64,000 nt of DNA from Desulfomonilia bacterium. GTDB taxonomy: Bacteria > Desulfobacterota > Desulfomonilia > UBA1062. The notes under the pieces were generated by a model. That model was given only the letters and a program-made list of their open reading frames with translations, did not search any database and was not told the DNA's origin. Positions within the stretch are counted from its first letter, which is position 1; the number at the start of each line of letters is the position of its first letter. A program made the position numbers and the translations under genes. Below, one piece after another: positions 7,710 to 58,639 of this stretch. The stretch covers positions 32,001 to 96,000 of the forward strand of contig JBEKDT010000003.1 of the NCBI GenBank assembly GCA_050014195.1, read 5' to 3'.

Positions 7710-7839
7710 ATATTCATGATAAAAGGAACTTACCTGTAATACAAGAGAAGAGCGAAGGATGCGAAACATTTAACTCAACAGCAGGGCCAATGTCTCCCAT
7801 GATGGGTGCTAAGGCTGTGGTAACATCGCTTCAGAAACA

Positions 7840-9114: not shown

Positions 9115-9341
9115 CCTAATCTCTAAGGTAGTAGTATTTACACATACCCTGTCATAGTGAATCACAGGGTATAGGCGATGGATCTTTCAGATACTATATT
9201 TATAAGCATACAATCTTAAAATAGAAGTGCTGGACCTGATATACTGCAAATGTAAACATTTCCTACACGGTTTTTTGTGAGTTGGTGGTATACTTGTTTT
9301 ATGGCAAAAAAGGAGAGTTCTTATCATGGGAGTGCTTGTCA

Positions 9342-9938
9342 ATGAAAGCTAAGAGTGTTGCAAAAGACTTTCCTGTCGTTTGCGTGGGCGGTTCGGCTGG
9401 TGGCCTCGACGCCTATACCCGGTTACTACGGCATATGCCGGCCGATATGGGTGTTGCTATCGTCATCGTAAATCACCAGAGAACCGTAGCCACCATGCTC
9501 CACGAGATTCTTCCGTACTACACAAAGATGCCGGTTGAACTGATCACGGAAAGATTACTCATCGAGCCCAACCATGTGTTCATCATCCCGGAACAGCGTG
9601 ATTTGCACGTGCTTGATGGAGAGTTCCGTCTAAAGCCGATATCAAAGCCTAGAGGATGGCCCGATGTGATTACGGTTTTTCTACGTTCCCTAACTGAGCA
9701 CTGGGACGGCAAACTTATCGCTGTCATTGTCTCTGGCTATGATGGTGATGGTGCAGCAGCGCTGTGCGGCATAAAAGAAGTGGGGGGCATTACCATCGCG
9801 CAGAAGCTCGACACAGCCGGGCAGCAAGATATGCCTGAGAGCGCAATTGCAAGCGGATGTATAGATTTTGTTCTTTCACCTGAGGATATCGCTCAAGAAA
9901 TTGTACGAATTGTGCACGCGGTGTCAAGGGCGGAGTGA
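9342..9938 (+). CDS. cheB: Stand-alone CheB methylesterase domain protein
   Basis: VCVGGSAGG, SGYDGDGAAAL, DMPESAI; no receiver domain. Confidence 0.85.
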   Translation: MKAKSVAKDFPVVCVGGSAGGLDAYTRLLRHMPADMGVAIVIVNHQRTVATMLHEILPYYTKMPVELITERLLIEPNHVFIIPEQRDLHVLDGEFRLKPISKPRGWPDVITVFLRSLTEHWDGKLIAVIVSGYDGDGAAALCGIKEVGGITIAQKLDTAGQQDMPESAIASGCIDFVLSPEDIAQEIVRIVHAVSRAE

Positions 9939-21054: not shown

Positions 21055-21309
21055 ATGATAAAGACGTTTCGTTGCAAGGATACGCAAGCCCTATTCGAAG
21101 GTCGTACCCCTCGACGATTCAAGGCTTTTTGTGCAATAGCCGAACGTAAATTACAAATGTTAGACTCCGCCATATCCTTAGAGGATCTGAAAAGTCCACC
21201 CGGGAACCGTAGGGGACAATGGAGCATCAGAATAAACGACCAATGGCGGGTGTGCTTCAGGTTTGAAGAGGGAGAAGTATTGGATGTGGAAATAGTCGAT
21301 TACCACTAA
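21055..21309 (+). CDS. higB: HigB (RelE/ParE superfamily) toxin, apparently with a short internal deletion
   Basis: MIKTFRCKDT...LKSPPGNR-RGQWSIRINDQWRVCF...EIVDYH. Confidence 0.85.
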   Translation: MIKTFRCKDTQALFEGRTPRRFKAFCAIAERKLQMLDSAISLEDLKSPPGNRRGQWSIRINDQWRVCFRFEEGEVLDVEIVDYH

Positions 21310-21319
21310 GGAGCGAGAG

Positions 21320-21625
21320 ATGAATATTAAAAATAACATGCGCCCCATTCATCCGGGAGAAATTCTCCGAGAGGAATTTCTTGTGCCTCTTGGAATAAGT
21401 GCACATGCCTTGGCGCTTGAGCTTAAAGTGCCAGCGCCTCGTATTTATGCTATCATGAACGAGCGCCGTGCAATTACCCCGGACACGGCTTTACGCCTTG
21501 CCAACTATTTTGGGACCACACCTGAATTCTGGCTCAACCTACAGACAGCCTATGATTTGAAAGTCGCTCAACGAAAGTTAGGACCTCTGATCAATAAAGA
21601 AGTGCATTCACGGAATGCAGCATAA
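21320..21625 (+). CDS. higA: HigA antitoxin (HTH)
   Basis: MRPIHPGEILREEFL...ITPDTALRLANYFGTTPEFWLNLQTAYDL. Confidence 0.93.
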   Translation: MNIKNNMRPIHPGEILREEFLVPLGISAHALALELKVPAPRIYAIMNERRAITPDTALRLANYFGTTPEFWLNLQTAYDLKVAQRKLGPLINKEVHSRNAA

Positions 21626-22382: not shown

Positions 22383-22398
22383 TGGCATGGTTCTGGCT
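22383..22398 (+). promoter_or_regulatory. Putative sigma54 (-24/-12) promoter
   Basis: TGGCATGGTTCTGGCT has GG-N10-GC spacing and lies about 110 nt upstream of the operon. Confidence 0.5.
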
Positions 22399-22505
22399 GT
22401 ACATAAGGGGCAGATGATGATACAAAAGAAAATTGTTGCGCCGGTGAAAAGTGTGAACGGCCCGACTGGCTTGATTGATTTTTTACACCAAAGGAAACAA
22501 GATTT

Positions 22506-22946
22506 ATGAACAATCGGGCTTTGAAAACATATATTTTTTATTGCTCAAACAATCTTGAAGCAAGCCAGTTTTCTGGTTTATGTCACGGAAACGATGGGGA
22601 TGCGATCAAGACCATCAGTCTGCCCTGTTCGGGGAAAGTGGATATTCCTTACTTGATCAAGGCATTTGAAAACGGGGCGGACGGTGTGGCGATTGTGACC
22701 TGCAAAAAGAACGAGTGTCGCCACTTCGAGGGCAATCTGCGGGCGCGAAGACGCGCCGAGGCAGTCGAAGCGCTGCTGGAGGAAATCGGCGTGACCGCGG
22801 GCCGGATGGCTGTTTTTGAGTGCGGGAAACAGGACGCCGAATCGGTCCTCGGCGAAATCAAGCAGTTCATTGAACGCTTGAGAAATCTGCCCCCGACGTA
22901 TGCTCGAAGCGGCACCGCCAACAAACAGGAGAGCACGGTAGCATGA
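22506..22946 (+). CDS. MvhD/FlpD-like [2Fe-2S] subunit (divergent copy)
   Basis: SLPCSGKVD..YLIKAFENGADGV...C...C..FEGN. Confidence 0.82.
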   Translation: MNNRALKTYIFYCSNNLEASQFSGLCHGNDGDAIKTISLPCSGKVDIPYLIKAFENGADGVAIVTCKKNECRHFEGNLRARRRAEAVEALLEEIGVTAGRMAVFECGKQDAESVLGEIKQFIERLRNLPPTYARSGTANKQESTVA

Positions 22947-23842
22947 AAGTTGACAGCAAACTCGCAAAAAAAATCGAGACGGGAGACTTTATCGTCACCG
23001 CCGAGTGTGCGCCCGGCGCCACTGCGTCAGGTGCAACCGCTGAGGCAGCTTTGAAAGCCCTGGGCAGCAAACCAGTGGCCGTCAATGTGGCTGACAATTC
23101 ACATGGGGTGGCGCTGTCGTCAATGGCCGCATCCGTGGCAGCGATGAAATTGGGTATTGAACCGGTCCTCCAAATGGTCACTCGCGACCGGAACCGCATC
23201 GCGTTACAGTCCGATTTGCTGGGAGCCGCCAGCTTGGGAATCAAGAATGTGCTCTGCATGTCCGGTTATCATCAGACACTGATCGGACGACCGGAATCAG
23301 TTAATGTATTTGATATCGATTCCATTCAGTTTATCGAGTTGACCAACCGGATGTCCGAAAATGGCGTGCTGGCCGACGGAACCAGCATAGACGGTCCGTT
23401 TCCAATGCTGGTGGGTGCTGCGGCAAATCCATTCCTGAAACCGCTCGAGCTGAACCTGCTCAGGCTGGGCCAAAAAGTCGAAGCCGGTGCCAGGTTTGTT
23501 CAAACTCACGCGGTATTTGACATTCAGGCCTTTGGCCAATGGCTTGACGCCGCCCGCAAAGAAGGCTTCACCAAAAAGACTGCCATTCTGGCCAGCGTTT
23601 ATCCCTTGGAAAGCGTGGCGGAAGCCCAAAAGCTCCGCGATACCTATGCCGAATTCTGCATTCCGGACGAAGTCATTGAACGGCTGAAAAAAGCAGGCGA
23701 TGCCGGTAAGAAAGAGGGCTTGGCCATTTGCGTTGAAACCATCAAGCAGCTTAAAGCGCTTACGGGTTTGCGCGGAATCCATATTCTTTCGGGTGGCAAG
23801 GAAGCAGTTGTGCCCGACTTGGTTGCCGCTTCCGGACTGTAG
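22943..23842 (+). CDS. metF: Methylenetetrahydrofolate reductase MetF (MetV-partnered type)
   Basis: VTAECAP, EPVLQMVTRDRNRIALQSDLLGA, KVEAGARFVQT. Confidence 0.88.
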   Translation: MKVDSKLAKKIETGDFIVTAECAPGATASGATAEAALKALGSKPVAVNVADNSHGVALSSMAASVAAMKLGIEPVLQMVTRDRNRIALQSDLLGAASLGIKNVLCMSGYHQTLIGRPESVNVFDIDSIQFIELTNRMSENGVLADGTSIDGPFPMLVGAAANPFLKPLELNLLRLGQKVEAGARFVQTHAVFDIQAFGQWLDAARKEGFTKKTAILASVYPLESVAEAQKLRDTYAEFCIPDEVIERLKKAGDAGKKEGLAICVETIKQLKALTGLRGIHILSGGKEAVVPDLVAASGL

Positions 23843-23857
23843 TAGCGTGGAGAGGTT

Positions 23858-25252
23858 ATGCCGGAAAAATATCACATCAAAACCCAGCCGGTTCCGCCGC
23901 GGCGGCCGCGCATAGGCAAACATGGCGTAGTAGACTGGCGTGAAGACTGCGCCCGGTGTCATAACTGCGTTAAAAAAGCCTGTGTCTATGACCGCTACCG
24001 GCAGGAGGCGGAATACATTCGCAACTTAAATGAAGTCGAGGCATTGTTTTTTGACTGCATGGGCTGTTTTTCCTGCGTGCAGGACTGCACCAAGGGCTTA
24101 TTACGCCTGTCAATAAACCCGGAGTATGAAAAACTCGGGAACAGTTACTGGAAACCCGACATCATAAAAACGACGTGGCTTCAGGCCGAAACCGCGAAAA
24201 TCCCGGTTTCCGGAGCTGGCTACCGGGGGCCGTTTTCCGGCAAGGGCTTCGATTCCATGTGGACGGACATGTCGGAGATTGTCCGCCCGACCCGCGACGG
24301 CATTCACGGACGGGAATACATCAGCACTTCGGTTGACATCGGCCGCAAGCCGCCGTTTCTGGCAATGAATGGAAACAAATCCACGGCCCTGCCACCGCTG
24401 GTCTCGATTCCGATGCCTTTGATCTTTGATTTGAGCTCTCCCGCGCACACGCTGCCTAAGCTTGATCCAATCATCGAACAGACCGCCGTCGACACCGGCC
24501 TGATCGCCCTCATGGACTCGCGTTACCGGCCGGCAAGCGACGCCCACCTGGAGAACATCGCATTTTATCTTGGCCCGGACAGTCCGAGCGTGCCGGATAC
24601 GATGCTGAAAAAAACCCGCCTGGTGGAAATCGCAGACAGCCAGGACGTGGCGAAGCGCATCAAGGCGATCAAAAAAATCCACCCGGAAATTGTCGTCACC
24701 ATCCGGGTGGAACTGACCGATGCGGGAATCGGACGCGCCATAGAGCTGGCGGGCTTAAAAGAGATTGAAGTGATCCACATCGTCTCCGATGCCAACGGCA
24801 ATGAGCTCACGGCGCAAAGCCCAAGGTTCATCAAGGACATGATCCGTCAGATTCATACCACGCTCATCGATAAGGGCATCCGGGATGAAATAACACTCAT
24901 GGCCGGCGGCGGCATCGCGCTGCCCGAGCACCTGGCCAAGGCCATTATCTGCGGCGCCGACCTGGTGACCATCAACCTGCCGCTCCTCGTCGCGCTGGAA
25001 TGTCATCTGTGCGACAGTTGTGAGCCCGAAACGACGTGCCCGGCCAAGCTGGAGAACATTGATTTCAACTACGGCGTGGGCCGGATGACGAACCTGATCG
25101 CGGCATGGCACGACCAGTTGATCGAGCTGATGGGTGCCATGGGCATGCGCGAGGTCCGCCGCCTGCGGGGCGACGTCGGCCGCGCCATGTTTTTCGAGAA
25201 CCTCGAGGAGGAAACATTTGGCAAGCTCTATGGAAAAAGAAAGACAGACTGA
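23858..25252 (+). CDS. Glutamate-synthase FMN-domain paralog with an N-terminal 2[4Fe-4S] ferredoxin; probably non-catalytic
   Basis: CARCHNC..C and CMGCFSC...C, AGGGI...LAKAI.CGAD, CHLCDSC.....C; lacks the GGMSFG and QGAKPG.GG motifs. Confidence 0.75.
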   Translation: MPEKYHIKTQPVPPRRPRIGKHGVVDWREDCARCHNCVKKACVYDRYRQEAEYIRNLNEVEALFFDCMGCFSCVQDCTKGLLRLSINPEYEKLGNSYWKPDIIKTTWLQAETAKIPVSGAGYRGPFSGKGFDSMWTDMSEIVRPTRDGIHGREYISTSVDIGRKPPFLAMNGNKSTALPPLVSIPMPLIFDLSSPAHTLPKLDPIIEQTAVDTGLIALMDSRYRPASDAHLENIAFYLGPDSPSVPDTMLKKTRLVEIADSQDVAKRIKAIKKIHPEIVVTIRVELTDAGIGRAIELAGLKEIEVIHIVSDANGNELTAQSPRFIKDMIRQIHTTLIDKGIRDEITLMAGGGIALPEHLAKAIICGADLVTINLPLLVALECHLCDSCEPETTCPAKLENIDFNYGVGRMTNLIAAWHDQLIELMGAMGMREVRRLRGDVGRAMFFENLEEETFGKLYGKRKTD

Positions 25253-26798
25253 GGACATTCTGCCTGAGAACACGCGCAAGACGCTCGTGCCGCAGGAGCA
25301 AGTGCAGCGCCTCGTCAAACCCGCGCCGTCCCGCTATCGCAACGAAATTGCCAAGTATATCGTGCACCGCAGCCCAGACTGCAAACGCTGCGGCAAGTGC
25401 GTGGAGGTCTGCTCCTATGGCGTCCACGTCCACGAACCCGGGTTCAAATATTTCGGCGAGCCCGAGCATCACTTGTGCATCGGGCCTTCCTGCGAAAATA
25501 CGGATAAGTATTGCGTGGCCCATTGCCCTCAAGGGGCTTTGTCGATCCGGGAAAATCCCACGTTCACAACGCTCGGCGATTATCGCTGGACCGCGGATTT
25601 GATTCTGGCGACATGGAAGATGGCCGAGACCGGAGATGTACCGCCCGAGGCCTACGATTTCAACTACGAATGCGGCAATTCCGGCGGCGGCTTTGACCGG
25701 CTCCGGTTCAAATTCCCGGACAAGCCTCCCGTCGAGCTCGACGAAAGCGAGATCGACACGAGCATCTCGCTGAATAAGCGCGGCGACGGCCGGCCCGAAA
25801 TCAAGATTGATGTTCCCTGGTACGGCGGCGGCATGTCGTTCGGCTCGGTCAGCAACGTAACCCAGCTTTCAAAGGCCCGGGCGGCAGTTGCGTTCAACAC
25901 GTTCACCTGCACCGGTGAGGGTGGTTACATGGAGCGCATGCGGCCGTATGACGACCACGTCATCACACAGGTCGCCACAGGCCTGTTCGGCGTGCGTGAG
26001 GAAACCATCCAGCGCGTGCCCATCGTGGAATTCAAGTATGCCCAGGGCGCCAAGCCAGGCCTCGGCGGTCATCTGCTCGGCGACAAAAACACCATCGCCG
26101 TCGCCCGCATGCGCGAGGCGGTGCTCGGCATCTCCCTGTTCTCCCCGTTCCCATTCCACAGTGTCTATTCCATCGAAGACCACGCCAAGCACATTGAATG
26201 GATCAAGCACGTGAACCGGAGCGCCTTGATCTCGACGAAGGTTTCAACCCCGACGGACGTGGACATGGTGGCGGTGGGCAGTTATTCCGCCGGCACGCAC
26301 ATCGTCCACATTGACGGCGGCTACGGCGGGACCGGCGCGGCGCCGGACATCGCCAAGAAGAACATCGCCATGCCCATTGAATACGCCATCGGCAAGGTAC
26401 ACAATTTCCTCGAAGCCGAGGGCGTCCGCGATAAGGTGACGCTGATCGCCAGCGGCGGAATCCGCACGGCCCACGACATCGCCAAGGCCATCGCACTGGG
26501 CGCGGACGGGGTGGTCATCGGTACCTCGGAAATGGTGGCGCTGGGCTGTGTTCGGTGCAGCCGCTGCGAGAGCGGGCGGGGCTGTCCGCGGGGCATCGCC
26601 ACGACCGACCCCGAGCTTGCCGCCAAAATGAAAGTTGAATGGGGCACCCAGCGACTCATCAACCTTTACAGCGCCTGGCAGAAAACGCTGGTCAAAATTC
26701 TGCAGCGCCTCGGCCTCAAAAGCGTCAGCGAACTGCGCGGACGCACCGACCTCATGATGCATCTGGATTACACCAACGAGGTAATGACAGACAAATGA
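25230..26798 (+). CDS. Glutamate-synthase FMN-binding subunit (GltB2-like) with a ferredoxin domain
   Basis: GGGMSFGS, CTGEGG, QVATGLFGV, KYAQGAKPGLGGHL, CVRCSRCESGRGCPRGIAT; probable start ATG 25230. Confidence 0.88.
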   Translation: MEKERQTEDILPENTRKTLVPQEQVQRLVKPAPSRYRNEIAKYIVHRSPDCKRCGKCVEVCSYGVHVHEPGFKYFGEPEHHLCIGPSCENTDKYCVAHCPQGALSIRENPTFTTLGDYRWTADLILATWKMAETGDVPPEAYDFNYECGNSGGGFDRLRFKFPDKPPVELDESEIDTSISLNKRGDGRPEIKIDVPWYGGGMSFGSVSNVTQLSKARAAVAFNTFTCTGEGGYMERMRPYDDHVITQVATGLFGVREETIQRVPIVEFKYAQGAKPGLGGHLLGDKNTIAVARMREAVLGISLFSPFPFHSVYSIEDHAKHIEWIKHVNRSALISTKVSTPTDVDMVAVGSYSAGTHIVHIDGGYGGTGAAPDIAKKNIAMPIEYAIGKVHNFLEAEGVRDKVTLIASGGIRTAHDIAKAIALGADGVVIGTSEMVALGCVRCSRCESGRGCPRGIATTDPELAAKMKVEWGTQRLINLYSAWQKTLVKILQRLGLKSVSELRGRTDLMMHLDYTNEVMTDK

Positions 26799-29461
26799 AC
26801 ACTGAATTGATCAATAAGCTGACCGGTTCAAGAAAACGACTCGCTGAGAGTCTTAAGTTATCCCCGATCCTTCGGAAGGAAGCAGAGGAAGGCGGCTGCG
26901 GCGTGGTCGGTTTCTGCTGCAGCGAGCCGGTTGCGGGCCGGCACATTTACGAACCGTCGCGCCAGATGCACAACCGCGGGAACGGCAAGGGCGGCGGCAT
27001 CGCCGCGGTGGGGTTCGTCCCGGAGCAGCTTGGGGTCAGCCGCGAGGTGCTGGGCACCCATTACCTGCTGAACGTGGCCTTCATCGACACTTCTTTGCGT
27101 CCGGAAATCGAAGAGGAGTTTATCAAGCCGTTCTTTGACGTCGCCGCCTCTGCGCAGTTCGACAAGGTGGACGACTGGAAATCCGTGCCGGGCCTTGAGG
27201 TGCTCCCGCCGGATGTCTGCCGTTACTTTGTACGCGTCAAGCCGCAGGTGCTCTTCGAGTTCATCGAGAAGAACGGCCTGCAGGCGCTCGACCGCGGCGA
27301 GGCGGAGGACGAATTCGTCAACCAGAACAGCTTCAGCCTCAATCAGAAGTATTACGCGTCCCTGGGCGAAAAACGCGCCTTCGTGCTCTCGCACGGCCGG
27401 GATATCATGATCCTTAAAGTTGTCGGCTATGCCGAAGCCATCGTGAAGTATTACAAAATCGAGGATCTGTGCGCCCACATATGGATCGCCCACCAGCGAT
27501 TCCCCACCAAGGGCCGCGTCTGGCACCCCGGCGGCGCCCATCCGTTCGCGGCCATTGACATGGCACTGGTGCACAACGGCGACTTTGCCAACTACCATTC
27601 GGTGACCGAATATCTCAAGCAGCGCCACATCTATCCCCAGTTTCTCACCGATACGGAAGTGTCCGCACAGCTCTTCGACCTGCTCAGCAGGACCTACCAT
27701 TACCCGCTGGAATACATCATCGAAGCCCTGGCGCCGACCACGGAGCTGGACTTCGACCGGCTCGACCCTGAGAAGCAGAAGATTTACCGGGCCATCCAGG
27801 CCACCCACATGCACGGCTCGCCCGACGGCCCCTGGTTCTTCATCATTGCCCGCAACCTCGCCCGCGTCAAACAGTTCCAGTTAATGGGCATCACCGACAC
27901 CGCGATGCTGCGGCCCCAGGTGTTCGCCTTCTGCGACGGCGAAGTCCAGGTGGGGCTGATCGCCTCGGAAAAGCAGGCCATTGACGCCACGCTCATGAGC
28001 CTGTCGAAGGATGACAAGCGGATCTGTCCCGTGGCGGACCGCTACTGGAATGCGCGCGGCGGCAGCTATGACGATGGCGGGGCGTTCATTTTCAACCTGA
28101 AGAAAGATCCGGCCGGCAAAATCCGGATCACCTGCACGGACAAATTCGGCACGCAGGTCGCTATGCCGGGCGGTACCGAGTCGTGCGATTTTTCCAAGGA
28201 ATTTTCATTATCCTCCGAATCGAGGGAGACTATACAGACAATAATCAGCGAGAGATTTATACCCGGCAACAGCGTCGCGATTTTTGAAATGATCCGCGGC
28301 CTCATACCGAACTCGACGTTTGACGAGATCGATCTGGCGTGCCGGCAGATCATCAACCAGGCCAGGGACTCTTCCAAGACGGCCACGGCGATAGAAGTCC
28401 TGACGCTGCTCAACGACCGGCGCTACTCGACCGGCTCGAAGAGACGCAGCCACGTGCTCCACATCGTGCGCACCGAGCTGAACGCTCTGTTCTCAAGCCT
28501 CCCCAAAATCAGCGACAAGGATGCCGCAAAGGGCGCGTATCGCCTGGTTGATTTTACGTCGCGCGGACACCTGCGGGGGCCGCAAGGCATGGAAAACACG
28601 CTGGTGATCGACGCCGCCGGATTTCCACCCGAAGGATACGACTGCGACGCCGCGCTGCTGGTTGACGCTTTTATGTTAGGCTGGCGCCGTTTCATCTGCT
28701 TCAACTGCATCGGCCAGCGGTACACCGGCTGCGGCCTCGGTCCGGAAACCGGGGATGTTACCATCGACGTGTACGGCAGCAGCGGCGATTATCTCGGTTC
28801 GGGCATTGACGGGCTGACGATCACGGTGCACGGCAACGCCCAGGACCAACTGGGGCAGATCGTCAAGCTGGGGAAAATGGTCATCCACGGCGACGTGGGC
28901 CAGACCTTCATGTACGGTGCCAAGGGCGGCGAGGTCTATGTGCTCGGCAACGCGGCGGGAAGGCCGCTCATCAACTCCGTGGGCCGGCCCAAGGTGGTCA
29001 TCAACGGCACCTGCCTCGACTTCCTCGGCGAGTCCTTCATGGCCGGCGACCCGCTCAATGGCGGCGGCTTCGTGATCTTAAACGGCGTCAAGCTCGATGA
29101 CGAAGGGAAACCGGTTCCGCTTCTTGATCCTTACCCGGGCAGCAACCTATTTTCGCTGGCTTCGGGCGGCGCCATTTTTGTCCGCGACCCGGGAAAGACC
29201 CTGGTGGACCAGCAGCTGAACGGCGGCCGGTTCGCCAAGGTGACCGACGCCGACTGGGAGCTGATCCTGCCGTTCCTGGAGGAGAACCAGAAACATTTCG
29301 GGATAACCGTCAGTGCGCTTTTGACCGTGGATGGCAAGCAGCTCGAGCCGTGCCGGGTGTATCGCAAGGTTGTTCCCGGCAATGTAAAGGACATTGTCCT
29401 GGAGGACACCGACGATGTCTGGGCTGAAGAACCGATTGAAGAACTGGCCGTGAATAAATAA
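26795..29461 (+). CDS. Glutamate-synthase amidotransferase + GXGXG subunit (GltB1-GltB3 fusion)
   Basis: EEGG|CGVVG Ntn nucleophile, HQRFPT, HPF, HNGD, TDTEV, DGPW; C-terminal beta-helix G.AQDQLG, GDVGQTFMYGAKGG; ATGA overlap at 26795. Confidence 0.88.
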   Translation: MNTELINKLTGSRKRLAESLKLSPILRKEAEEGGCGVVGFCCSEPVAGRHIYEPSRQMHNRGNGKGGGIAAVGFVPEQLGVSREVLGTHYLLNVAFIDTSLRPEIEEEFIKPFFDVAASAQFDKVDDWKSVPGLEVLPPDVCRYFVRVKPQVLFEFIEKNGLQALDRGEAEDEFVNQNSFSLNQKYYASLGEKRAFVLSHGRDIMILKVVGYAEAIVKYYKIEDLCAHIWIAHQRFPTKGRVWHPGGAHPFAAIDMALVHNGDFANYHSVTEYLKQRHIYPQFLTDTEVSAQLFDLLSRTYHYPLEYIIEALAPTTELDFDRLDPEKQKIYRAIQATHMHGSPDGPWFFIIARNLARVKQFQLMGITDTAMLRPQVFAFCDGEVQVGLIASEKQAIDATLMSLSKDDKRICPVADRYWNARGGSYDDGGAFIFNLKKDPAGKIRITCTDKFGTQVAMPGGTESCDFSKEFSLSSESRETIQTIISERFIPGNSVAIFEMIRGLIPNSTFDEIDLACRQIINQARDSSKTATAIEVLTLLNDRRYSTGSKRRSHVLHIVRTELNALFSSLPKISDKDAAKGAYRLVDFTSRGHLRGPQGMENTLVIDAAGFPPEGYDCDAALLVDAFMLGWRRFICFNCIGQRYTGCGLGPETGDVTIDVYGSSGDYLGSGIDGLTITVHGNAQDQLGQIVKLGKMVIHGDVGQTFMYGAKGGEVYVLGNAAGRPLINSVGRPKVVINGTCLDFLGESFMAGDPLNGGGFVILNGVKLDDEGKPVPLLDPYPGSNLFSLASGGAIFVRDPGKTLVDQQLNGGRFAKVTDADWELILPFLEENQKHFGITVSALLTVDGKQLEPCRVYRKVVPGNVKDIVLEDTDDVWAEEPIEELAVNK

Positions 29462-29476
29462 CCGGAGATTACTATC

Positions 29477-30043
29477 GTGATAACCATCAAGAAAAACAGG
29501 ATCGGCTATGGGCTGAAGAGCGCCGTCGAGGAGCTGACCGGCGTTGACGGAAACGTCTGCCTGCAGTGCAAGAAATGCTCGAGCGGATGCCCGGTGGCAA
29601 AGCTCGCCAGAACCCGGCCATCGGAAATCATGCGTCTGCTGCACCTCGGCGCCGGGGAGGAACTGCTCGAGCGCGACCTCGTCTGGCTGTGCGTCTCGTG
29701 CGAAACCTGCTCGTCGCGCTGCCCCATGCGCATTGATGTGGCCGCTGTCATGGACTCGCTCCGCCGACTTGCCTTAGAGCGGGGCGCGCCGAAACCTCAA
29801 GGCGACATGCCGCTGTTCAACCGCGCATTCTTGAAGACGGTCGAGATCTTCGGCCGCCCCTACGATATCGCCATGATCACCGCCTACAAGATCGGCACGG
29901 GCAAATTGATGGACGACACGGAAAAATTCCCGGCCATGCTGAAGAAGGGAAAAATCGCGCTGCTGCCGCCGCTTAATGGCGACAGGAAAACCGTGAAACG
30001 TATTTTCAAAAAAACAAAACAAAACCGAGGAACCCGAGCATGA
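29477..30043 (+). CDS. hdrC: Heterodisulfide reductase subunit C-like
   Basis: CLQCKKCSSGCP and WLCVSCETCSSRCP. Confidence 0.9.
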   Translation: MITIKKNRIGYGLKSAVEELTGVDGNVCLQCKKCSSGCPVAKLARTRPSEIMRLLHLGAGEELLERDLVWLCVSCETCSSRCPMRIDVAAVMDSLRRLALERGAPKPQGDMPLFNRAFLKTVEIFGRPYDIAMITAYKIGTGKLMDDTEKFPAMLKKGKIALLPPLNGDRKTVKRIFKKTKQNRGTRA

Positions 30044-30918
30044 AATACGCCTACTATCCCGGATGCTCGACTGAATCCACAGCCCGCGACATGAACCAGT
30101 CCACGTATGCGGTCGCCCGGGCTCTTAAGCTCGATTTCGAGGAACCCAAAGGCTGGACCTGCTGCGGCGCCACCGCGGGTCACCAGACCGATCGAGAGCT
30201 CGCCGTTGCATTGTCCGCCGCCAACCTGGCCAAGGTCCAGGACATGAAGTTGGACATGGTCGTCAATTGCGCCGCCTGCTACAACCGGATGAAGGTAGCC
30301 AACCACGAAATTTCCACCCACGCCGCTGTCCGCCGGAACGTCCGTGACGCGCTCGAGAGGGATTACGACGGGACGGTCAAGGTCCGCCACCTCCTCGAGG
30401 TGCTCCTGGAGGATATCGGCCTGCCAACCCTCACCAAGTCCCTCAAACGAACGCTGAACGGCCTCAAGGTGGCCTGCTACTACGGCTGCCTGCTGGTCCG
30501 TCCGCCGGAGATTTTACAGTTCGACGACCCTGAGAATCCGAAGTCTCTCGACCGCCTGGTGACTGCGATGGGTGGCGTTAGCCTCGACTGGCCCTGCAAG
30601 GTCGATTGCTGCGGCGGCAGCCTGTCGCTGTCGCGGACCGACGTGGTAGTCCAGCTCACCGAGTCCATTCTCGATATGGCGGTCCAGTCGGGCGCCGAGT
30701 GCATCGCGGTCAGCTGTCCCATGTGCCAGATTAACCTCGATGTGCGGCAGCAGGACATCAACAAGCTCTCGGGCAGGAACTACCGCATGCCGGTGATTTA
30801 CATCACCCAGCTCCTCGGGCTTTGCCTGGGCCTTGACGCGAGCGAGCTCGGATTTGAAAAGCTGATGGTCCCCGCTGAAAACGTCTTAAAAAAAATGGAA
30901 GTAAACTCTCATGAGTAA
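30040..30918 (+). CDS. hdrB: Heterodisulfide reductase subunit B-like
   Basis: YYPGC, WTCCG, CAAC, YYGC, CCGG, CPMC (two CCG domains). Confidence 0.92.
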   Translation: MKYAYYPGCSTESTARDMNQSTYAVARALKLDFEEPKGWTCCGATAGHQTDRELAVALSAANLAKVQDMKLDMVVNCAACYNRMKVANHEISTHAAVRRNVRDALERDYDGTVKVRHLLEVLLEDIGLPTLTKSLKRTLNGLKVACYYGCLLVRPPEILQFDDPENPKSLDRLVTAMGGVSLDWPCKVDCCGGSLSLSRTDVVVQLTESILDMAVQSGAECIAVSCPMCQINLDVRQQDINKLSGRNYRMPVIYITQLLGLCLGLDASELGFEKLMVPAENVLKKMEVNSHE

Positions 30919-33900
30919 ATCAGACGACAAGAAAATCGGCGCGGTGCTGGTGCAGGGCGGCGGTATTGCCGGCGTCCAGGCGGCGCTCGATCTGGCAAAC
31001 AGCGGCTTCAAGGTTTATCTCATCGAGCGCGACGCAGCCATCGGCGGCATGATGGCGCACCTCGACAAGACCTTCCCGACCGGCGACTGTGCCACCTGCA
31101 TCGTCTCGCCCAAGCTCGTCGAATGCGCGCGGAACCTGAACATCGAGATCCTGACTCTTTCCGAGCTGGTGGGACTGGAAGGCGTACCCGGCCGGTTCAG
31201 GGCTACCGTCCTGCGGCATCCGCGGTATGTGGACGAGAACAAATGTACCGGGTGCAGCGAATGCACTTTAGTCTGTCCTGTGGACATTCCGGACGAGTTC
31301 AACCGCTGCCTGGGGACACGCAAGGGCATTGCCAAGCTTTACGCTCAGGCCACCCCGAACATTTTCGGCATCCTGAAAAACGGCCACTCGCCCTGCAAAA
31401 TGAAGTGCCCGGCCAGGGTGAACGTCCAGGGCTACGTGCAGCTCATCAAGCAGAAGGAATATGTCAAGGCGGTGGAGCTCATCAGAGAGCGGAACCCGCT
31501 TTCGGCCATCTGCGGCCGCATCTGCACCCACCCTTGCGAGTCCGAATGCACGAGGATGGGTGTCGACGCCCCTATCGCCATCCGGCTGCTGAAGCGGTTC
31601 GCATCGGACAAAGAAATGGAGATGCTCGCAGCTGGCGAGCTGGCCCTTCCGGAGGAAAAAGTAACCGCACCGGATGCCAAGAAGGTCGCGATCATCGGCG
31701 GCGGCCCGGCCGGTCTTACAGCAGCCAATGATCTGGCTGACGCCGGTTTCAGCGCCACGGTGTTCGAAGCCATGCCTGAAGCCGGCGGTATGCTCCGCTA
31801 CGGGATCCCAGAGTATCGCCTGCCCAAGAAGGTGCTCGACCACGAGATCGAGATCATTCGCCGCAAGGGCGTGACATTTGTATACAACTGCCGTATAGGA
31901 GGGGACGTCACTTTCGAGTCCCTCCGCAAGGATTATGCCGCTATCTTCATCTCTGCCGGCGCACAGAAAAGCCGCAAGCTCGGCGTTCAAGGCGAGGACA
32001 TCAAAGGCGTCCTGCACGGCGTGGAATTCCTGCGCGACGCGGCTTTATCCAAAAAACCCAAGGTGAAGGACCGCGTGCTGGTCATCGGCGGCGGCAACGT
32101 GGCCGTGGACGTGGCCCGGACCGCGCTGCGCCTGGGCGCTTCGAGCGTCGAGATGGTCTGCCTCGAAGCACGGCACGAGATGCCGGCCTACGAGGAGGAA
32201 ATCGAGGCCACCCTCGCGGAAAACATCAGGATCCGCAACGGCTGGGGCCCCAAACGCATCCTCGGCAACGGAAAAGTCGCCGGCATCGAGCTCAAGCGCT
32301 GCACCCGGGTCTTTGACGAGATGAAACGCTTCAGCCCGGCCTTTGACGAAAACGACCTCACCACCATCGATGCCGACCAGATCATCGTGGCCATCGGACA
32401 GATGGTGGACGAACAGACCGTCAGCCACATCGACGTCCAGACCGAACGCGGCTGTTTCATGGCCGACCCGGTGACCGGGCAGACGTCCGTTGAGAGCATT
32501 TTTGCAGGCGGCGACAATGCATCCGGTCCTTTATCCGTGATCGAAGCAGTGGCTGCTGGCAAACGGACGGCCGAATCCATCGAGCGGTATTTGAACGGCA
32601 AGGATCTGCTCGGCGGCCGGTTTGAGGAAAGCTTAAGTCCGCTCCCCCAGGAGCTCCTGCCGGAGCTCGACAAGGTCGAGAAAAAGTCCCGGCCGCGTCC
32701 GGAAGAGCTGGCGCCCTCCAGCCGCCAAAGGAATTTCAACGAGGTGGAAAAAGGTCTCACCGAAGAGCAGGCACTCGCGGAGGCCGAGCGGTGCCTCAAT
32801 TGCGCCCTGTGCTCGGAATGCTTCCGGTGCGTCGAAACCTGCAAGCAGAACGCAATTGACCACGCCATGAAGGAACGGACAATCACCCTCGAAGTGGGCT
32901 CGGTCATCCTGACCCCGGGCTTTGACGAGTTCGATGCATCGCTTAAAGGGGAGTTCGGCTACGGCCGCTATCCCAACGTGGTCACATCCGTCCAGTATGA
33001 ACGGATGCTGTCCGCCGCCGGGCCGTTTGAAGGGCATGTCATCCGCCTGTCGGACGGACGCGAGGCCAGGCGCATCGCCTGGATCCAATGCGTGGGTTCT
33101 CGCGACAAGGCGTGCGGCAACGAATATTGCTCCTCCATCTGCTGCATGATGGCCACCAAACAGGCGCTCGTCACCGGCGACCACGTCGAAGGGCTGGACG
33201 CCACGATTTTCTACATGGACATCCGTGCCCATGGCAAGGATTTCGATCAGTATTACGAGCGCGCCCGGGCTCAGGAGAACATCCATTACATCAAGAGCAT
33301 CCCCTCGCGGATCGTCCAGTTGCCCGGCAGCAAGGACCTTCGGCTTGCTTACTTCGACGAGAACGAAGGACTTTCGCACAAGGAGTTCGACCTGGTCGTG
33401 CTGTCCGTGGGCATGGAACCGCCGCACAGCATGGCGGGGCTGGCCGCCAGCATGAACATCAAGCTCAACAAATTCGGTTTCTGCGACACCGACCGGCTCC
33501 AGCCGCTTTGCAGTTCCCGGCCCGGCGTGTTCGTGGGCGGCGCCTTCCAGGAACCCAAGGACATTCCCGAGACCGTGACCCAGGCCAGCGCCGCGGCATC
33601 CATGGCCATGGAGCTGCTCGCGCCGGCCCGCAATTCGCTGATAACGAAAAAGAGCTATCCCACTGAGCACGATGTCACCGATGAAGAACCGCGCCTCGGC
33701 GTGTTTGTCTGCCACTGCGGCATGAACATCGGGTCGGTCGTGGACGTGGAGCAGGTGGTCAAGCAAGTGGAGCATGAGCCGAATGTGGTTTTAGCGACGC
33801 ACACCATGTTCACCTGTTCCGACACGAGCCTGTCGAATATCAAGGACATGATCCATGAGCACCGGCTCAACAGAGTCGTGGTGGCCTCATGCACCCCGCG

Positions 33901-35410
33901 GACGCACGAGCCGCTGTTCCGCGAAACCTTACGCGAAGCGGGCCTGAACCCTTATCTGTTCGAAATGACCAACATCCGCGACCAGTGCTCCTGGGTGCAT
34001 TCGGCCGAGCCGGAATCCGCCAGCGAAAAGGCGACTGAGCTCGTGAAGATGTCCATCGCCAGGGCCCGCAGGCTCCAGCCTCTGGAAGGAGGAACGCTCA
34101 AGGTTGACCAGACCGGCATCGTCATCGGCGGGGGCTTAAGCGGTATGACCTCTGCGCTGGCGCTCGCCAACCAGGGATTCGACGTCCACTTGATCGAGCA
34201 GGCGAATCGTCTGGGCGGCACCCTGCACGATATTCACCGGACCCTCGAGCAGGAGGACATCGCCGCCTTCGCTGAGAGTCTCATCGATCAGGTCCGGAAT
34301 CATTCCCAGATCAAAACATATCTCCAGGCCGAGATATCCGGAATCAATGGTCACATCGGCAAGTTCCATGTGTCGTTCGACCAGGATGGCAAAAACCAGG
34401 AGGTCATCGGCGGCGCCATCATCGTGGCCACGGGCGCTCAGGCGGCCGAGACAGGCGAATATTTACACGGCCGGTCCGAGAAGGTCCTGACGCAGGTCGA
34501 ACTGGGGAAGCGCCTTCACGAGAAGTCTTGGCCCGCCCGGGGACAGAACATCGTCATGATCCAGTGTGTGGGCTCGCGAAACGATGAGCATCCCTACTGC
34601 AGCCGCATCTGCTGCTCCATGGCCGTCCAAAACGCGCTGGCCGTCAAAAAACTGGATCCTGAGGCCAATGTAATCGTGCTCTACCGGGACGTGAGGACCT
34701 ACGGTTTCCGAGAAATCTACTACCAGCAGGCGCGCGAGGCCGGCGTGGTCTTCATCCGCTACGCGGCTGATGCGCCGCCCCAGGTGACCGAGGAGGGCGA
34801 CCTGGTTGTCACGCTCAAGAGCCCCGACTTCCCCGAGACACTCGCGATCGAAGCCGACAATGTCGTGCTCAGCACGGGCGTGGAAGTGGACTTGAAGAAC
34901 AACAAGCGCATGTCTGACATGCTCAAGGTGCCGCTCAATGCCGACGGCTTTTATGTGGAAGCGCACATGAAGCTGCGGCCGGTGGATTTTACGACCGAGG
35001 GCGTTTTCCTCTGCGGCATGGCCCATTCGCCGAAGTTCATTGACGAAAACATTTCTCAGGCGCGCGCAGCAGCCGCGCGGGCGGCCACCGTGCTTTCGAA
35101 GACGCAGCTCGACGTCAGCGCCCAGGTTTCGTATGTAGACCAGCAGAAGTGCATTTCCTGCATGACCTGCGTCACCGTCTGCCCGTATTCCGCGCCCTAC
35201 TGCAACAAGGACGGCAAGGGGCAGATCGAGGCAGCCAAGTGTATGGGATGCGGCATCTGTGCGGCCGAATGTCCTGCCTGCGCCATAGAGCTGCATCATT
35301 TCGAAACCGACCAGTTTGTTGTGATGATCAAGGAACTGTTCGCCGGCAACCTCGGGGAAGACCGGGAAGACGGCGAAACCGCGGCCTGCTCGGCAACCGG
35401 TAGGAGGTAA
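30911..35410 (+). CDS. hdrA: Large HdrA-like flavoprotein (HdrL type) with an inserted GltD/NfnB-like NAD(P)H module and a duplicated HdrA domain
   Basis: GGGIAG, LDKTFPT.DC; CKMKCP...ICGRICTHPCESEC, GGGPAG, GGGNVA; two IQCVGSR...YCS.ICC motifs; VFVCHCG; C-terminal ferredoxin. Confidence 0.9.
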   Translation: MSKSDDKKIGAVLVQGGGIAGVQAALDLANSGFKVYLIERDAAIGGMMAHLDKTFPTGDCATCIVSPKLVECARNLNIEILTLSELVGLEGVPGRFRATVLRHPRYVDENKCTGCSECTLVCPVDIPDEFNRCLGTRKGIAKLYAQATPNIFGILKNGHSPCKMKCPARVNVQGYVQLIKQKEYVKAVELIRERNPLSAICGRICTHPCESECTRMGVDAPIAIRLLKRFASDKEMEMLAAGELALPEEKVTAPDAKKVAIIGGGPAGLTAANDLADAGFSATVFEAMPEAGGMLRYGIPEYRLPKKVLDHEIEIIRRKGVTFVYNCRIGGDVTFESLRKDYAAIFISAGAQKSRKLGVQGEDIKGVLHGVEFLRDAALSKKPKVKDRVLVIGGGNVAVDVARTALRLGASSVEMVCLEARHEMPAYEEEIEATLAENIRIRNGWGPKRILGNGKVAGIELKRCTRVFDEMKRFSPAFDENDLTTIDADQIIVAIGQMVDEQTVSHIDVQTERGCFMADPVTGQTSVESIFAGGDNASGPLSVIEAVAAGKRTAESIERYLNGKDLLGGRFEESLSPLPQELLPELDKVEKKSRPRPEELAPSSRQRNFNEVEKGLTEEQALAEAERCLNCALCSECFRCVETCKQNAIDHAMKERTITLEVGSVILTPGFDEFDASLKGEFGYGRYPNVVTSVQYERMLSAAGPFEGHVIRLSDGREARRIAWIQCVGSRDKACGNEYCSSICCMMATKQALVTGDHVEGLDATIFYMDIRAHGKDFDQYYERARAQENIHYIKSIPSRIVQLPGSKDLRLAYFDENEGLSHKEFDLVVLSVGMEPPHSMAGLAASMNIKLNKFGFCDTDRLQPLCSSRPGVFVGGAFQEPKDIPETVTQASAAASMAMELLAPARNSLITKKSYPTEHDVTDEEPRLGVFVCHCGMNIGSVVDVEQVVKQVEHEPNVVLATHTMFTCSDTSLSNIKDMIHEHRLNRVVVASCTPRTHEPLFRETLREAGLNPYLFEMTNIRDQCSWVHSAEPESASEKATELVKMSIARARRLQPLEGGTLKVDQTGIVIGGGLSGMTSALALANQGFDVHLIEQANRLGGTLHDIHRTLEQEDIAAFAESLIDQVRNHSQIKTYLQAEISGINGHIGKFHVSFDQDGKNQEVIGGAIIVATGAQAAETGEYLHGRSEKVLTQVELGKRLHEKSWPARGQNIVMIQCVGSRNDEHPYCSRICCSMAVQNALAVKKLDPEANVIVLYRDVRTYGFREIYYQQAREAGVVFIRYAADAPPQVTEEGDLVVTLKSPDFPETLAIEADNVVLSTGVEVDLKNNKRMSDMLKVPLNADGFYVEAHMKLRPVDFTTEGVFLCGMAHSPKFIDENISQARAAAARAATVLSKTQLDVSAQVSYVDQQKCISCMTCVTVCPYSAPYCNKDGKGQIEAAKCMGCGICAAECPACAIELHHFETDQFVVMIKELFAGNLGEDREDGETAACSATGRR

Positions 35411-35421
35411 AAGTCAAGTCC

Positions 35422-35868
35422 ATGAAATCCGACGTATTTGAACCCAAGATCGTGGCCTTTTGCTGCCACTACTGCGCCTATGCCTCAGCCGATCTGGCGG
35501 GGACCATGCGCATCCAGTACCCGCCCAACGTGCTCATCATCCGCACCCCCTGCACGGGCCGGCTGGAAACCGAATACTTCATGAAGGCATTTGAAAACGG
35601 TGCGGACGGCGTGTTGGTGGCAGGCTGTCTCGAAGGGGGCTGTCATTTTCTCGAAGGCAACCTCTGCGCCAAACGCCGGGTCAACTACATCCGGGACATG
35701 CTCGAGGAGATCGGCATGGAAAAGGAACGCCTCCGCATGGTCAACATTTCCGCCGCCATGGCGCGGCCACTGGCGGACACCATCATCGACATGGTGGAAA
35801 CGGTCCGCAAACTGGGCCCCAGCCCGCTGAGATCGGGCGCCAAATTAAAACAGGAGTGTCGCTCATGA
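35422..35868 (+). CDS. mvhD: MvhD [2Fe-2S] subunit
   Basis: FCCHYCAYASADLAG, PCTGR, GADGV.VAGC..GGCHF.EGN. Confidence 0.92.
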   Translation: MKSDVFEPKIVAFCCHYCAYASADLAGTMRIQYPPNVLIIRTPCTGRLETEYFMKAFENGADGVLVAGCLEGGCHFLEGNLCAKRRVNYIRDMLEEIGMEKERLRMVNISAAMARPLADTIIDMVETVRKLGPSPLRSGAKLKQECRS

Positions 35869-36533
35869 TCGTCGCACAAAGAAAAAGCATTCCCGAACTG
35901 CTCACAATCGTGGAAAAACACCGCAACGTGCTCGTGCTCGGCTGCGGCACCTGCGTCACCGTCTGCCTCGCCGGCGGCCAGCGCGAAGTCAGCATCATTG
36001 CCTCAGCGCTACGCATGGCGGCCAGAGTGAAAGACGTAGCCCTGGACGTCGAGGAGCTCACCATAGAACGCCAGTGCGACAACGTTTTCCTCGAGCAGGC
36101 CGCCGAGGCGGCCAGGCAGGCTGACGCCGTGCTGTCGCTGGGCTGCGGAGCCGGCGTGCAGGCGCTGGCCGAACGTTTTGTGGACAAACCGGTTTACGCG
36201 GGCCTCGACACCGCATTCATCGGCATTCTGGAAGAACGGGGCATCTGGACGGAAAAATGCGCGGCCTGCGGCTCGTGTGTGCTCCATCTCTACGGCGGTA
36301 TCTGCCCGGTCACCCGCTGCGCGAAGCACATGTTGAACGGCCCGTGCAGCGGCTCGCGTGAAGACCGGTGCGAAGTCGACCCCAGCCTTCCGTGCGCCTG
36401 GCAGCTCATTTACAAACGGCTCAAAGATATTGGGCAGCTGGACCGGTTGAAGGAGATCAGGCAGCCCAAGAACTGGCGTCCAAGCCTGTCCGGCGGCTGC
36501 CGTACCATCATCCGCGAAGACCACCGGGTGTGA
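35865..36533 (+). CDS. metV: MetV (methylene-THF reductase C-terminal-like Fe-S/Zn subunit)
   Basis: MIVAQRK, GCGTCVTVC.AGG, RQC, CGAGVQ, CAACGSC...GGICPVTRCAK.MLNGPC.G. Confidence 0.88.
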   Translation: MIVAQRKSIPELLTIVEKHRNVLVLGCGTCVTVCLAGGQREVSIIASALRMAARVKDVALDVEELTIERQCDNVFLEQAAEAARQADAVLSLGCGAGVQALAERFVDKPVYAGLDTAFIGILEERGIWTEKCAACGSCVLHLYGGICPVTRCAKHMLNGPCSGSREDRCEVDPSLPCAWQLIYKRLKDIGQLDRLKEIRQPKNWRPSLSGGCRTIIREDHRV

Positions 36534-36589: not shown

Positions 36590-36994
36590 ATGGTGACAGC
36601 AACACCCCAAGACCTTACTAACATGGCAAAGTGTCTTAATGGATTCGATATAGTTAATTTTGAAAAGCATGATCAGTGCGGATATAAAATTATTTCAAGA
36701 CATAATCTGGGTCTCTTAGCTTTAAAGGGTCTTTTAGAAAAATGCTACCCTGTTAAAAACCTTGAATATGTCGCAGAAAATAATATGCTTGATCGCTTGT
36801 TTTATTCATTTGATTTAAAAACAGATACACATCAGTTTGTCATCAATTCAAAAGTTCATAAACAATTACTTAATGATAAAAATAATGAAATGAGAGATGC
36901 TGCACTTTCTCTCCTTAATGCAATTGAAGAACTACATTTAAAAGATGAAAACGCAAAAGCACGAGATGAATATGTTAAACTTGTTAATAATTAA
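36590..36994 (+). CDS. Hypothetical protein (AT-rich)
   Basis: 134-aa ORF with GGAGG RBS; sharp GC drop after the operon. Confidence 0.55.
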   Translation: MVTATPQDLTNMAKCLNGFDIVNFEKHDQCGYKIISRHNLGLLALKGLLEKCYPVKNLEYVAENNMLDRLFYSFDLKTDTHQFVINSKVHKQLLNDKNNEMRDAALSLLNAIEELHLKDENAKARDEYVKLVNN

Positions 36995-58371: not shown

Positions 58372-58639
58372 ACGTATATGTCTCTCCTTTCCTGATTTTT
58401 CTCCTGAGTTTTTAAACGCGGTGCTCCCGAGCAGAACTTTTATCGGAGACAATTGCGTCTTCTTTTCATACACGAACACATGCAAAAAGAAAATCCCTTT
58501 CGTGAAATGGGCATTAACCATACTTTTACCGTCGGGTCTTATGGTCCGTCATTCCACTATGACCTTGATGTCTTCGGAAAAAAAAGGTACTCCTGAAAAA
58601 AGGCATCCGGTACGGTTTCCCAAACCGCAGGGGTTAGGT

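Follow-up and report, generated by a model that had tools for sequence, protein, structure and literature searches.

We analysed a 64,000 nucleotide stretch of DNA from a Desulfomonilia bacterium (contig JBEKDT010000003.1 of assembly GCA_050014195.1, positions 32,001 to 96,000; called the window below), in which ten genes of the + strand, between positions 22506 and 36533, join a split glutamate synthase-like enzyme to an HdrCBA-MvhD-MetVF redox module. This ten-gene operon, which had been noticed in a sequence-only reading of the same DNA, is confirmed here as real. In our view the ten genes form a mobile cassette for one multi-subunit glutamate synthase complex, which would be fed by NAD(P)H, centred on the large HdrA protein (HdrL), and might bifurcate electrons to ferredoxin; we hold this reading with about as much confidence as doubt. 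Glutamate synthase is the main entry point of nitrogen into biomass, and the known enzymes draw their electrons from NADPH (through GltD) or ferredoxin, and in some archaea they use F420. The cassette links this chemistry to an HdrA/MvhD/MetVF module; this points to a means of powering nitrogen assimilation that is undescribed and may conserve energy.

Genes were called from a listing of the open reading frames (ORFs) of the window together with Pfam and NCBIfam scans (table 1), and the families found agree with the gene identities assigned in the sequence-only reading. The order is mvhD', metF, gltB2', gltB2, gltB1-3, hdrC, hdrB, hdrA, mvhD, metV. As had also been claimed, all are co-directional and overlap (by 4, 23, 4, 4, 8 and 13 nucleotides) or lie no more than 15 nucleotides apart (gaps of 15, 15 and 11 nucleotides), and six of the nine junctions are overlaps, as translational coupling predicts. 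The spacing stands, with two starts corrected: those of the longest ORFs, 25134 and 26639, are too early, and 25230 and 26795 fit the neighbouring stops. The coordinates likewise bear out a contiguous hdrC-hdrB-hdrA-mvhD-metV order of the Moorella type, with metF at the front of the operon, metV at its end and the glt genes between them; we count this interleaved arrangement in favour of one functional unit.

Table 1. Genes and promoter-like element of the cassette (positions are those of the window)
Feature	Position	Strand	Basis or remark
sigma-54-like -24/-12 element (GG-N10-GC)	22383..22398	+	108 nucleotides upstream of the mvhD' start
mvhD', MvhD/FlpD-like [2Fe-2S] adaptor, 146 residues	22506..22946	+	PF02662 FlpD, 2.5e-26
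metF*, methylenetetrahydrofolate reductase-fold protein with altered active site	22943..23842	+	PF02219, 1.4e-26, 93.9 bits
gltB2', putative degenerate Fe-S paralogue of GltB2, 464 residues	23858..25252	+	Fer4 and weak match to C-terminal half of Glu_synthase, 9e-14
gltB2, predicted FMN/Fe-S synthase subunit with N-terminal ferredoxin domain, 522 residues	25230..26798 (likely start)	+	Fer4 and PF01645, 3.2e-91
gltB1-3 fusion, 888 residues	26795..29461 (likely start)	+	GATase_6 and GXGXG
hdrC, two-[4Fe-4S] subunit	29477..30043	+	Fer4_17, Fer4_8; TIGR03290, 7.9e-17
hdrB, two CCG domains	30040..30918	+	PF02754 in two stretches; TIGR03288, 1.4e-58
hdrL (large hdrA), 1499 residues	30911..35410	+	Pfam, NCBIfam and PDB sequence matches
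mvhD, MvhD [2Fe-2S] adaptor, 148 residues	35422..35868	+	PF02662 FlpD, 5.7e-49
metV, Cys-rich partner of MetF-type reductases, 225 residues	35856..36533	+	PF12225/DUF5981, 1.5e-36

The core of the cassette is most likely a genuine glutamate synthase, since the glutaminase and FMN-domain motifs are intact and nitrogen genes adjoin it in relatives (below). GltB2 carries the FMN/Fe-S synthase domain of the amidotransferase-type glutamate synthases, and it aligns with residues 857–1171 of the Azospirillum GltS alpha subunit at 181 bits, the Cys cluster motif included. GltB1-3 consists of a class-II (Ntn) glutaminase, a linker of 200–270 residues that has no Pfam match, and a C-terminal GXGXG beta-helix domain (PF01493, 3.2e-15); the nucleophile of the glutaminase, Cys35, follows a leader of 34 residues. 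We aligned GltB1-3 with GlmS-type Ntn glutaminases and with FwdC. The Cys nucleophile motif is found in 76 of 81 GltB1-3 sequences (the other five are without their N-terminus), and the Arg, Asn-Gly and Asp motifs are found in 80 to 81 of the 81; we take the roles of these residues, nucleophile for the Cys and glutamine binding for the others, to be those of their GlmS counterparts. Neither GltB2' nor the linker of GltB1-3 matches the central domain of glutamate synthases (PF04898) at E values up to 10, and GltB2' may take the role of that domain. GltB2' shares 25% identity with GltB2 along its whole length and keeps the motifs of the N-terminal dicluster domain and the four-Cys cluster motif, but its TIM barrel is without the FMN and 2-oxoglutarate motifs; we read it as a putative Fe-S scaffold or wire, a degenerate paralogue of GltB2. 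A block of about 45 residues (116–162) is invariant in 39 orthologues of this protein, which public records name 'ferredoxin' or 'hypothetical'. An AF2 model of GltB2' has a mean pLDDT of 62.5 and is confident only in the barrel core (approximately residues 185–380), and a Foldseek search of the PDB returned generic FMN-type TIM barrels (IMPDH, and the FMN domain of GltS with a TMq of 0.40–0.42), matches that do not separate a central-domain role from an FMN-domain role.

On the electron-input side the hdrA product is of the HdrL type, that is, an HdrA with a GltD/NfnB-like domain whose gene is followed by mvhD. Its first HdrA unit is interrupted, at about residues 157–660, by an NfnB/GltD-like FAD/NAD(P)H/2x[4Fe-4S] domain, after which come a second HdrA unit and a C-terminal ferredoxin domain. 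Against PDB sequences the protein matches HdrA in four stretches, subunits of the Nfn/Stn type at 245–369 bits and GltD at 150–162 bits; its Rossmann and Cys motifs could be identified, and the NAD(P)H/FAD/2x[4Fe-4S] domain is complete. The two MvhD proteins are 39% identical to each other and have four conserved Cys residues each, those of mvhD' being invariant in 39 orthologues, which would suit two MvhD-tagged client modules docking on the tandem HdrA. MetV has no solved relative.

In the complex that we favour, the core would be made up of the MvhD' [2Fe-2S] adaptor, GltB2' as a degenerate Fe-S scaffold, GltB2 with its FMN and Fe-S clusters, and GltB1-3. It would hydrolyse glutamine, deliver the ammonia to 2-oxoglutarate and reduce the 2-iminoglutarate at the FMN. 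The NfnB/GltD-like insert of HdrL would oxidise NAD(P)H, whose electrons would run through the clusters of HdrL, HdrC, HdrB, MvhD and MetV to GltB2'/GltB2. The midpoint potentials of NAD (about -320 mV), of 2-oxoglutarate plus ammonium/glutamate (near -120 mV) and of ferredoxin (-400 to -500 mV) would leave enough driving force for co-reduction of ferredoxin. With NAD(P)H as donor, glutamate synthesis by this enzyme is strongly exergonic, and bifurcating flavoproteins have their classical example in HdrA. The excess energy would therefore probably go into the co-reduction of ferredoxin, through bifurcation at a flavin of HdrA; nitrogen assimilation would then yield reduced ferredoxin rather than wasted free energy. 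MetF would most likely persist as a flavin-containing or structural relay, or else act on a changed substrate. We infer all four of these elements (the single complex, the electron path, the bifurcation and the part played by MetF). A complex prediction for MvhD', MetF and GltB2', in which MetF was scored with alignments of 39 rows, gave a score of 0.01, which speaks neither for nor against association.

Species-representative genomes were searched with the fused GltB1-3, which gave at least 600 stretches, of which 576 were confirmed; the best 80 loci were kept and sorted by tblastn with the ten window proteins. We write their architectures with D for MvhD, F for MetF, b' for GltB2', b for GltB2, G for GltB1-3, C, B and L for HdrC, HdrB and HdrL, and V for MetV. 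All ten genes are present in the window's order in 34 of these best 80 loci, and a further 12, truncated at contig ends, are consistent with it. Six loci (one of them cut) have the cyclic permutation G-C-B-L-D-V-D-F-b', three have an architecture without hdrCB, and two (one cut) read D-b'-b-G-L-D-V-F-C. The shorter forms are D-b'-b-G-V-F (eight loci, two cut), D-V-F-b'-b-G (six) and D-b'-b-G only (three, one cut); in one locus D-F-b'-b-G is followed by 10 kb without hdr or metV, and five loci were too short for classification. Altogether metF or metV stands beside glt genes in 65 of the best 80. The records are labelled Verrucomicrobiota, Planctomycetota, Bacteroidota, Ignavibacteriota, Spirochaetota, Chloroflexota, Acidobacteriota, Armatimonadota, Myxococcota, Thermodesulfobacteriota, Nitrospirota and others, and the ten-gene order occurs in anaerobes labelled as at least nine phyla. 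The thought that the combination might be peculiar to the host genome is thus disposed of, since it is conserved in loci with many phylum labels. In one Bacteroidota-labelled locus (L037:5711-7021) mvhD' and metF are read as a single ORF of 437 residues, perhaps because the two are naturally fused, perhaps through misassembly.

These data bear on an alternative in which an Hdr-MetVF reductase and a split glutamate synthase of the ferredoxin type are co-transcribed but otherwise independent, making two or three enzymes in all. The core does occur alone, HdrL-MvhD-MetV-MetF forms a separate block adjoining it in two loci (L097 and L100), and the cassette duplicates housekeeping functions, all of which would suit such an arrangement. 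However, the interleaved order, with metF and metV 12 kb apart, is kept under different phylum labels in those 34 loci, the active site of MetF changes exactly when metF moves beside gltB2', and the divergence of all the modules is correlated (the pairwise identities of eight proteins co-vary over 35 complete clusters, with Spearman coefficients of 0.63–0.96). We consider independent enzymes very unlikely.

A second, independent sample of 20 further loci from the window's own phylum shows how the cassette is put together. Eight of the 20 read D-V-F-b'-b-G, two (one cut) have the permuted order G-C-B-L-D-V-D-F(-b'), one has the window order, two read D-b'-b-G-L-D-V-F-C, two have the HdrL-MvhD-MetV-MetF block followed by D-b'-b-G, and five have the core only (D-b'-b-G or b'-b-G). 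The core thus stands without MetVF or Hdr in 5/20 loci, and MetVF is added to it, with or without HdrL, in 15/20. The common core is MvhD, GltB2', GltB2 and GltB1-3, to which MetVF is added first and HdrL second, the latter sometimes together with HdrBC.

The active site of MetF differs with these arrangements. Alignment with human and Thermus methylenetetrahydrofolate reductases (MTHFRs) shows that the window protein keeps Glu21, but that Tyr109 stands at the Asp of the RGD motif and His189 at the Gln of the TQ motif of the solved enzymes (we assume the usual roles and E. coli numbers for this Glu/Asp/Gln triad). The window thus combines an incomplete triad with a metF that lies 12 kb from metV rather than next to it. 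A first sample of 61 MetF sequences, the window's included, divides by arrangement: where Hdr is absent or MetF is adjacent to MetV (the forms C1, C2 and B2) Glu, Asp and Gln are present in 14/14, and they are again present in 10/10 of such sequences from the second sample, in which two distant L-D-V-F loci were not reliably readable. In the D-F-b' arrangement, on the other hand, the Asp is present in only 1/47 and 0/3, respectively, its replacement being mostly Tyr but also His, Asn, Ala or Arg, and the Gln is often replaced too. With the folate-binding Asp replaced, and often the Gln as well, ordinary methylene-tetrahydrofolate (methylene-THF) reductase activity is doubtful in the Hdr-linked operon type. 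The MetF of the window is probably not an ordinary methylene-THF reductase; it may be a relay or an enzyme with a changed substrate.

It had been proposed that the operon couples methylene-THF reduction to glutamate synthesis. The Glt half of that proposal has held up, in that this part looks functional; the other half is made doubtful by Tyr109 and His189. In its fullest form the idea is that HdrL oxidises NADH and feeds an active MetVF and the Glt core within one complex, so that one-carbon metabolism and nitrogen assimilation are coupled. The hdrC-hdrB-hdrA-mvhD-metV order, which is that of the Moorella-type cluster in the accessible part of its description (PMC5736913), would fit a complex of this kind, as would the two MvhD genes and two HdrA units and a MetF that keeps Glu21 and is under strong purifying selection. 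The host genome also encodes ACS and FTHFS, so that it likely has a Wood-Ljungdahl pathway. Against this, the folate-binding Asp is replaced in 46/47 MetF proteins of the D-F-b' arrangement, often together with the Gln; the host has a separate MetF (306 bits) elsewhere in its genome; and ACS was not seen in 3/5 other carriers of the full operon, genomes of unknown completeness. Nor do the energetics suit glutamate synthase as the second acceptor of a bifurcating MTHFR, a pairing that the earlier proposal implied, because by commonly quoted redox values both reactions have high-potential acceptors. A complex with two active acceptors is, we think, unlikely.

The minimal forms raise another alternative, namely that MetVF oxidises methyl-THF and its electrons reduce 2-iminoglutarate, with Hdr adding a link to NAD(P)H or ferredoxin. 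These forms consist of MvhD, the Glt core and a MetVF whose triad is canonical throughout (the 14/14 and 10/10 above), they are without a pyridine-nucleotide module, the reaction would be exergonic by the usual redox potentials, and an analogous fusion of a substrate dehydrogenase to Glt domains exists (the GlcD-like proteins described below). In the window's own operon type, however, MetF is altered; the core is also found without MetVF in 5/20 loci, so there it must take its electrons by another route; and the flux into nitrogen assimilation is small compared with the catabolic flow of one-carbon units. For the window we regard a methyl-THF-driven enzyme as quite unlikely. The minimal forms nevertheless offer a testable direct link from the folate one-carbon pool to nitrogen assimilation.

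The genomic link to glutamine synthetase and nitrogen regulation is seen in relatives and not in the window itself. We examined 93 proteins in the flanks of the 20 loci of the second sample: glnA lies within three ORFs of the cassette in 6/20 loci, and glnD (2/20), nrpR (1/20), sigma-54 activators (3/20), carA or carAB (3/20) and NAD synthase (3/20) are also found there. In the first set of best 80 loci, sigma-54 activators adjoin 10 loci, GlnA 4, PII 4 and Amt 3 (these were named by reading the sequences rather than by Pfam). Such neighbours weigh on the second suggestion of the sequence-only reading, an anaerobic methylamine route in which the Glt-like subunits act as the N-methylglutamate synthase MgsABC and MetF passes the methyl group to the folate pool. 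MgsABC is known to have the same three domain types. But no DAO, GCV_T or sarcosine-oxidase-type protein is present among the 93 flank proteins or in the window, the neighbours are instead glnA with glnD, nrpR, carAB and NtrC-type regulators, and the Ntn domain retains its glutamine-binding motifs. The suggestion thus finds no support in gene context and is, in our judgement, extremely improbable.

Other electron-input modules are attached to similar cores. On contig 4 of one genome (G016; L090:2106-9701), a gene that directly follows glnA and precedes carAB encodes a protein of 2531 residues. This protein combines a GlcD-like FAD_binding_4 domain and Fe-S domains with three Glt parts: the FMN domain of Glu_synthase, a stretch that shares 33% identity with GltB1-3, and GXGXG. 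At L108:3775-5616 a separate FAD_binding_4 plus Fer4_8 protein of 614 residues lies upstream of gltB2'-gltB2-gltB1-3, and the match table of the window's own phylum holds about seven giant ORFs of the GlcD-like/Glt type, of roughly 2370–2550 residues. The fused and split forms suggest a glutamate synthase driven by a 2-hydroxy-acid dehydrogenase. F420-linked glutamate synthases of archaea are discussed in the accessible part of PMC9012536. With these and the GlcD-like forms, interchangeable electron-input modules on a Glt core have a precedent.

Several observations weigh against the NAD(P)H-fed complex as we have drawn it. Its glutaminase domain reaches GATase_6 of Pfam and not GATase_2, which canonical and M. 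jannaschii GltB proteins do reach, so it is an atypical member of its kind. HdrBC normally reduces a disulfide, and our scheme leaves the role of that site without explanation. MetF retains Glu21 and a well-conserved pocket, which argues against a purely structural relic. Bifurcation, for its part, is purely a deduction from the kinds of protein that are encoded. Nor is the cassette the sole route to glutamate: the host has GDH and, on contig 7, a second GltB2 with a GltB3-GltD cluster, and a canonical GltB of 1530 residues is present in 2/5 other carriers. Furthermore, there are no nitrogen genes in the window's own flanks, the sigma-54-like motif described below precedes only 9/65 loci, and no RNA run is listed among the sequencing runs that share words with the operon.

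The cluster on contig 7 (L002:74-3997) comprises a Pfam-less ORF of 307 residues, a GltB2 (Fer4 plus Glu_synthase, 198 bits) and a GltB3-GltD fusion made of GXGXG, Fer4_20 and a Rossmann domain. Six of the best 80 loci have, by sequence reading, a comparable GltB3-GltD fusion close to the cassette.

The GG-N10-GC promoter motif reported earlier is present at 22383 as TGGCATGGTTCTGGCT, which agrees with the sigma-54 consensus at 10 of its 12 specified positions (0.013 such matches are expected per 400 nucleotides of background), and rpoN is encoded in the host genome. Motifs that match at 9 of 12 positions lie upstream in seven close relatives (L004, L005, L006 and L008-L011). As a universal feature of the cassette the motif was rejected, since the strict pattern is found in 3/65 loci and the 9-of-12 threshold is reached in 9/65; regulation of the operon is thus not uniform. 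A scan for terminator-like sites inside the operon was uninformative (16 observed, 19.0 expected from shuffles).

The cassette of the window appears to have been acquired horizontally as an island. It nests among copies from Verrucomicrobiota-labelled metagenome-assembled genomes, with identity of up to 85%, while the best match among 301 sampled genomes of its own phylum is 69%; two genomes of the same genus and one of the same family gave no match; and its flanks are not shared with the closest loci, where only ankyrin-repeat matches appeared in a synteny comparison. These points together argue for acquisition as an island. A GltB1-3 match with an E value reported as 0 is present in 83 of the 301 own-phylum genomes, the host included. 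Several genomes assembled as a single contig are among the carriers of the GltB1-3 gene, the source of L097 being one, and relatives are also labelled as metagenome-assembled genomes of Desulfosarcina, Desulfonema and Desulforapulum. In the same-genus and same-family genomes the downstream flank has scattered matches of 66–78%, mostly to MCP paralogues. The flanking genes are unrelated to the operon (a HigB/HTH pair upstream, and MCP, DJ-1 and AcrB genes downstream). Directly upstream, the HigB-like toxin and HTH_3 antitoxin-like genes (21055-21625) are followed by about 880 nucleotides of AT-rich non-coding DNA, and the pair and this stretch are compatible with an island border. A downstream ORF of 134 residues (36590-36994) matches no Pfam family, and none of the 80 related loci has a counterpart of it. 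The cassette recurs in anaerobes of peat, sediment and groundwater. Twenty-four DNA sequencing runs from 23 studies (peat or wetland metagenomes) hold 54–93% of the sampled words of the operon (22400-32300), and one of them may be the source sample.

Elsewhere in the window, an alpha-glucan phosphorylase appears to be split over two adjoining ORFs on the minus strand (14567-17113; one of 342 residues with DUF3417 and the N-terminal part of Phosphorylase, one of 502 residues with its middle part), so that the gene may be frameshifted or a pseudogene. At 5088-7769 (minus strand) CheB, CheR and PAS are fused in a protein of 893 residues; between it and a separate CheB-like methylesterase (9282-9938) lies a PAS histidine kinase. 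A LarC-like nickel insertion protein, an AIRC/LarB-like protein, DUF362 and a homologue of the 2-hydroxyglutaryl-CoA dehydratase D-component are grouped at 58421-63290.

Should the complex bifurcate, it might represent a new class of flavin-based bifurcating enzyme, with Hdr-less ancestors that were methyl-THF:2-oxoglutarate/glutamine oxidoreductases; we put this forward tentatively, as a rather doubtful extension of the reading above. If it were true, many energy-limited anaerobes would conserve energy as they assimilate nitrogen. A more practical consequence is that many public genes named 'methylenetetrahydrofolate reductase (NADPH)' or 'ferredoxin' may be mis-assigned in reconstructions of the Wood-Ljungdahl pathway from metagenomes.

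Among known systems, the Moorella-type bifurcating MTHFR cluster, as given in the accessible part of PMC5736913, shares with the cassette the hdrC-hdrB-hdrA-mvhD-metV order, a DUF5981 MetV, a MetF homologue and a presumed NADH donor. It differs in three respects: the HdrA of the cassette is a tandem protein of the HdrL type with an NfnB/GltD-like insert; metF lies 12 kb away and encodes a protein with the Asp and Gln replaced; and there are four extra genes, the second mvhD, gltB2', gltB2 and gltB1-3. Sporomusa ovata is said to have a comparable MTHFR system. The bacterial NADPH-dependent GltBD enzymes (Azospirillum, Bacillus) and the archaeal split GltB1/2/3 share with the cassette a glutaminase of the Ntn type with a processed leader, the FMN/Fe-S domain, GXGXG and a GltD-like module. 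Unlike in those enzymes, the domains are here spread over three proteins with GltB1 and GltB3 fused, a degenerate GltB2 paralogue with Fe-S motifs stands in place of the Pfam central domain, the cluster motif has four Cys rather than the three of GltS, the GltD-like module lies inside the HdrA protein and is closer to Nfn/Stn subunits, and an MvhD adaptor belongs to the core. MgsABC is likewise built of three GltB1-, GltB3- and GltB2-like parts, but the cassette has extra Fe-S and Hdr subunits, and its context is glnA, glnD and nrpR instead of gmaS/mgd-type neighbours.

In the open full-text literature (most subscription journals and supplements lie outside it) we found no description of GltB-type genes within hdr/metVF clusters, and there is none in the accessible parts of PMC2702500, PMC5736913, PMC7325909, PMC6315080, PMC12054007, PMC9012536 and PMC8359953. 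A protein similar in design to this HdrA is the HdrL of Desulfobacterium autotrophicum HRM2, from which we take the name: a large HdrA with an NADH domain like the glutamate synthase small subunit, followed by mvhD (PMC2702500, accessible part). There, the HdrL loci adjoin dsr or fdh genes and not GltB-type genes, and HdrL is called unique to the HRM2 genome (same part of PMC2702500), whereas the HdrL described here belongs to a widespread Glt cassette. The F420-dependent, FrhB-linked GltS clusters of archaea follow the same principle as the cassette, a split Glt core with a non-canonical electron input, although the input there, by the accessible part of PMC9012536, is FrhB and F420 and here would be MvhD, MetVF and HdrL. 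We rate the cassette as a probable glutamate synthase with a new electron-input architecture.

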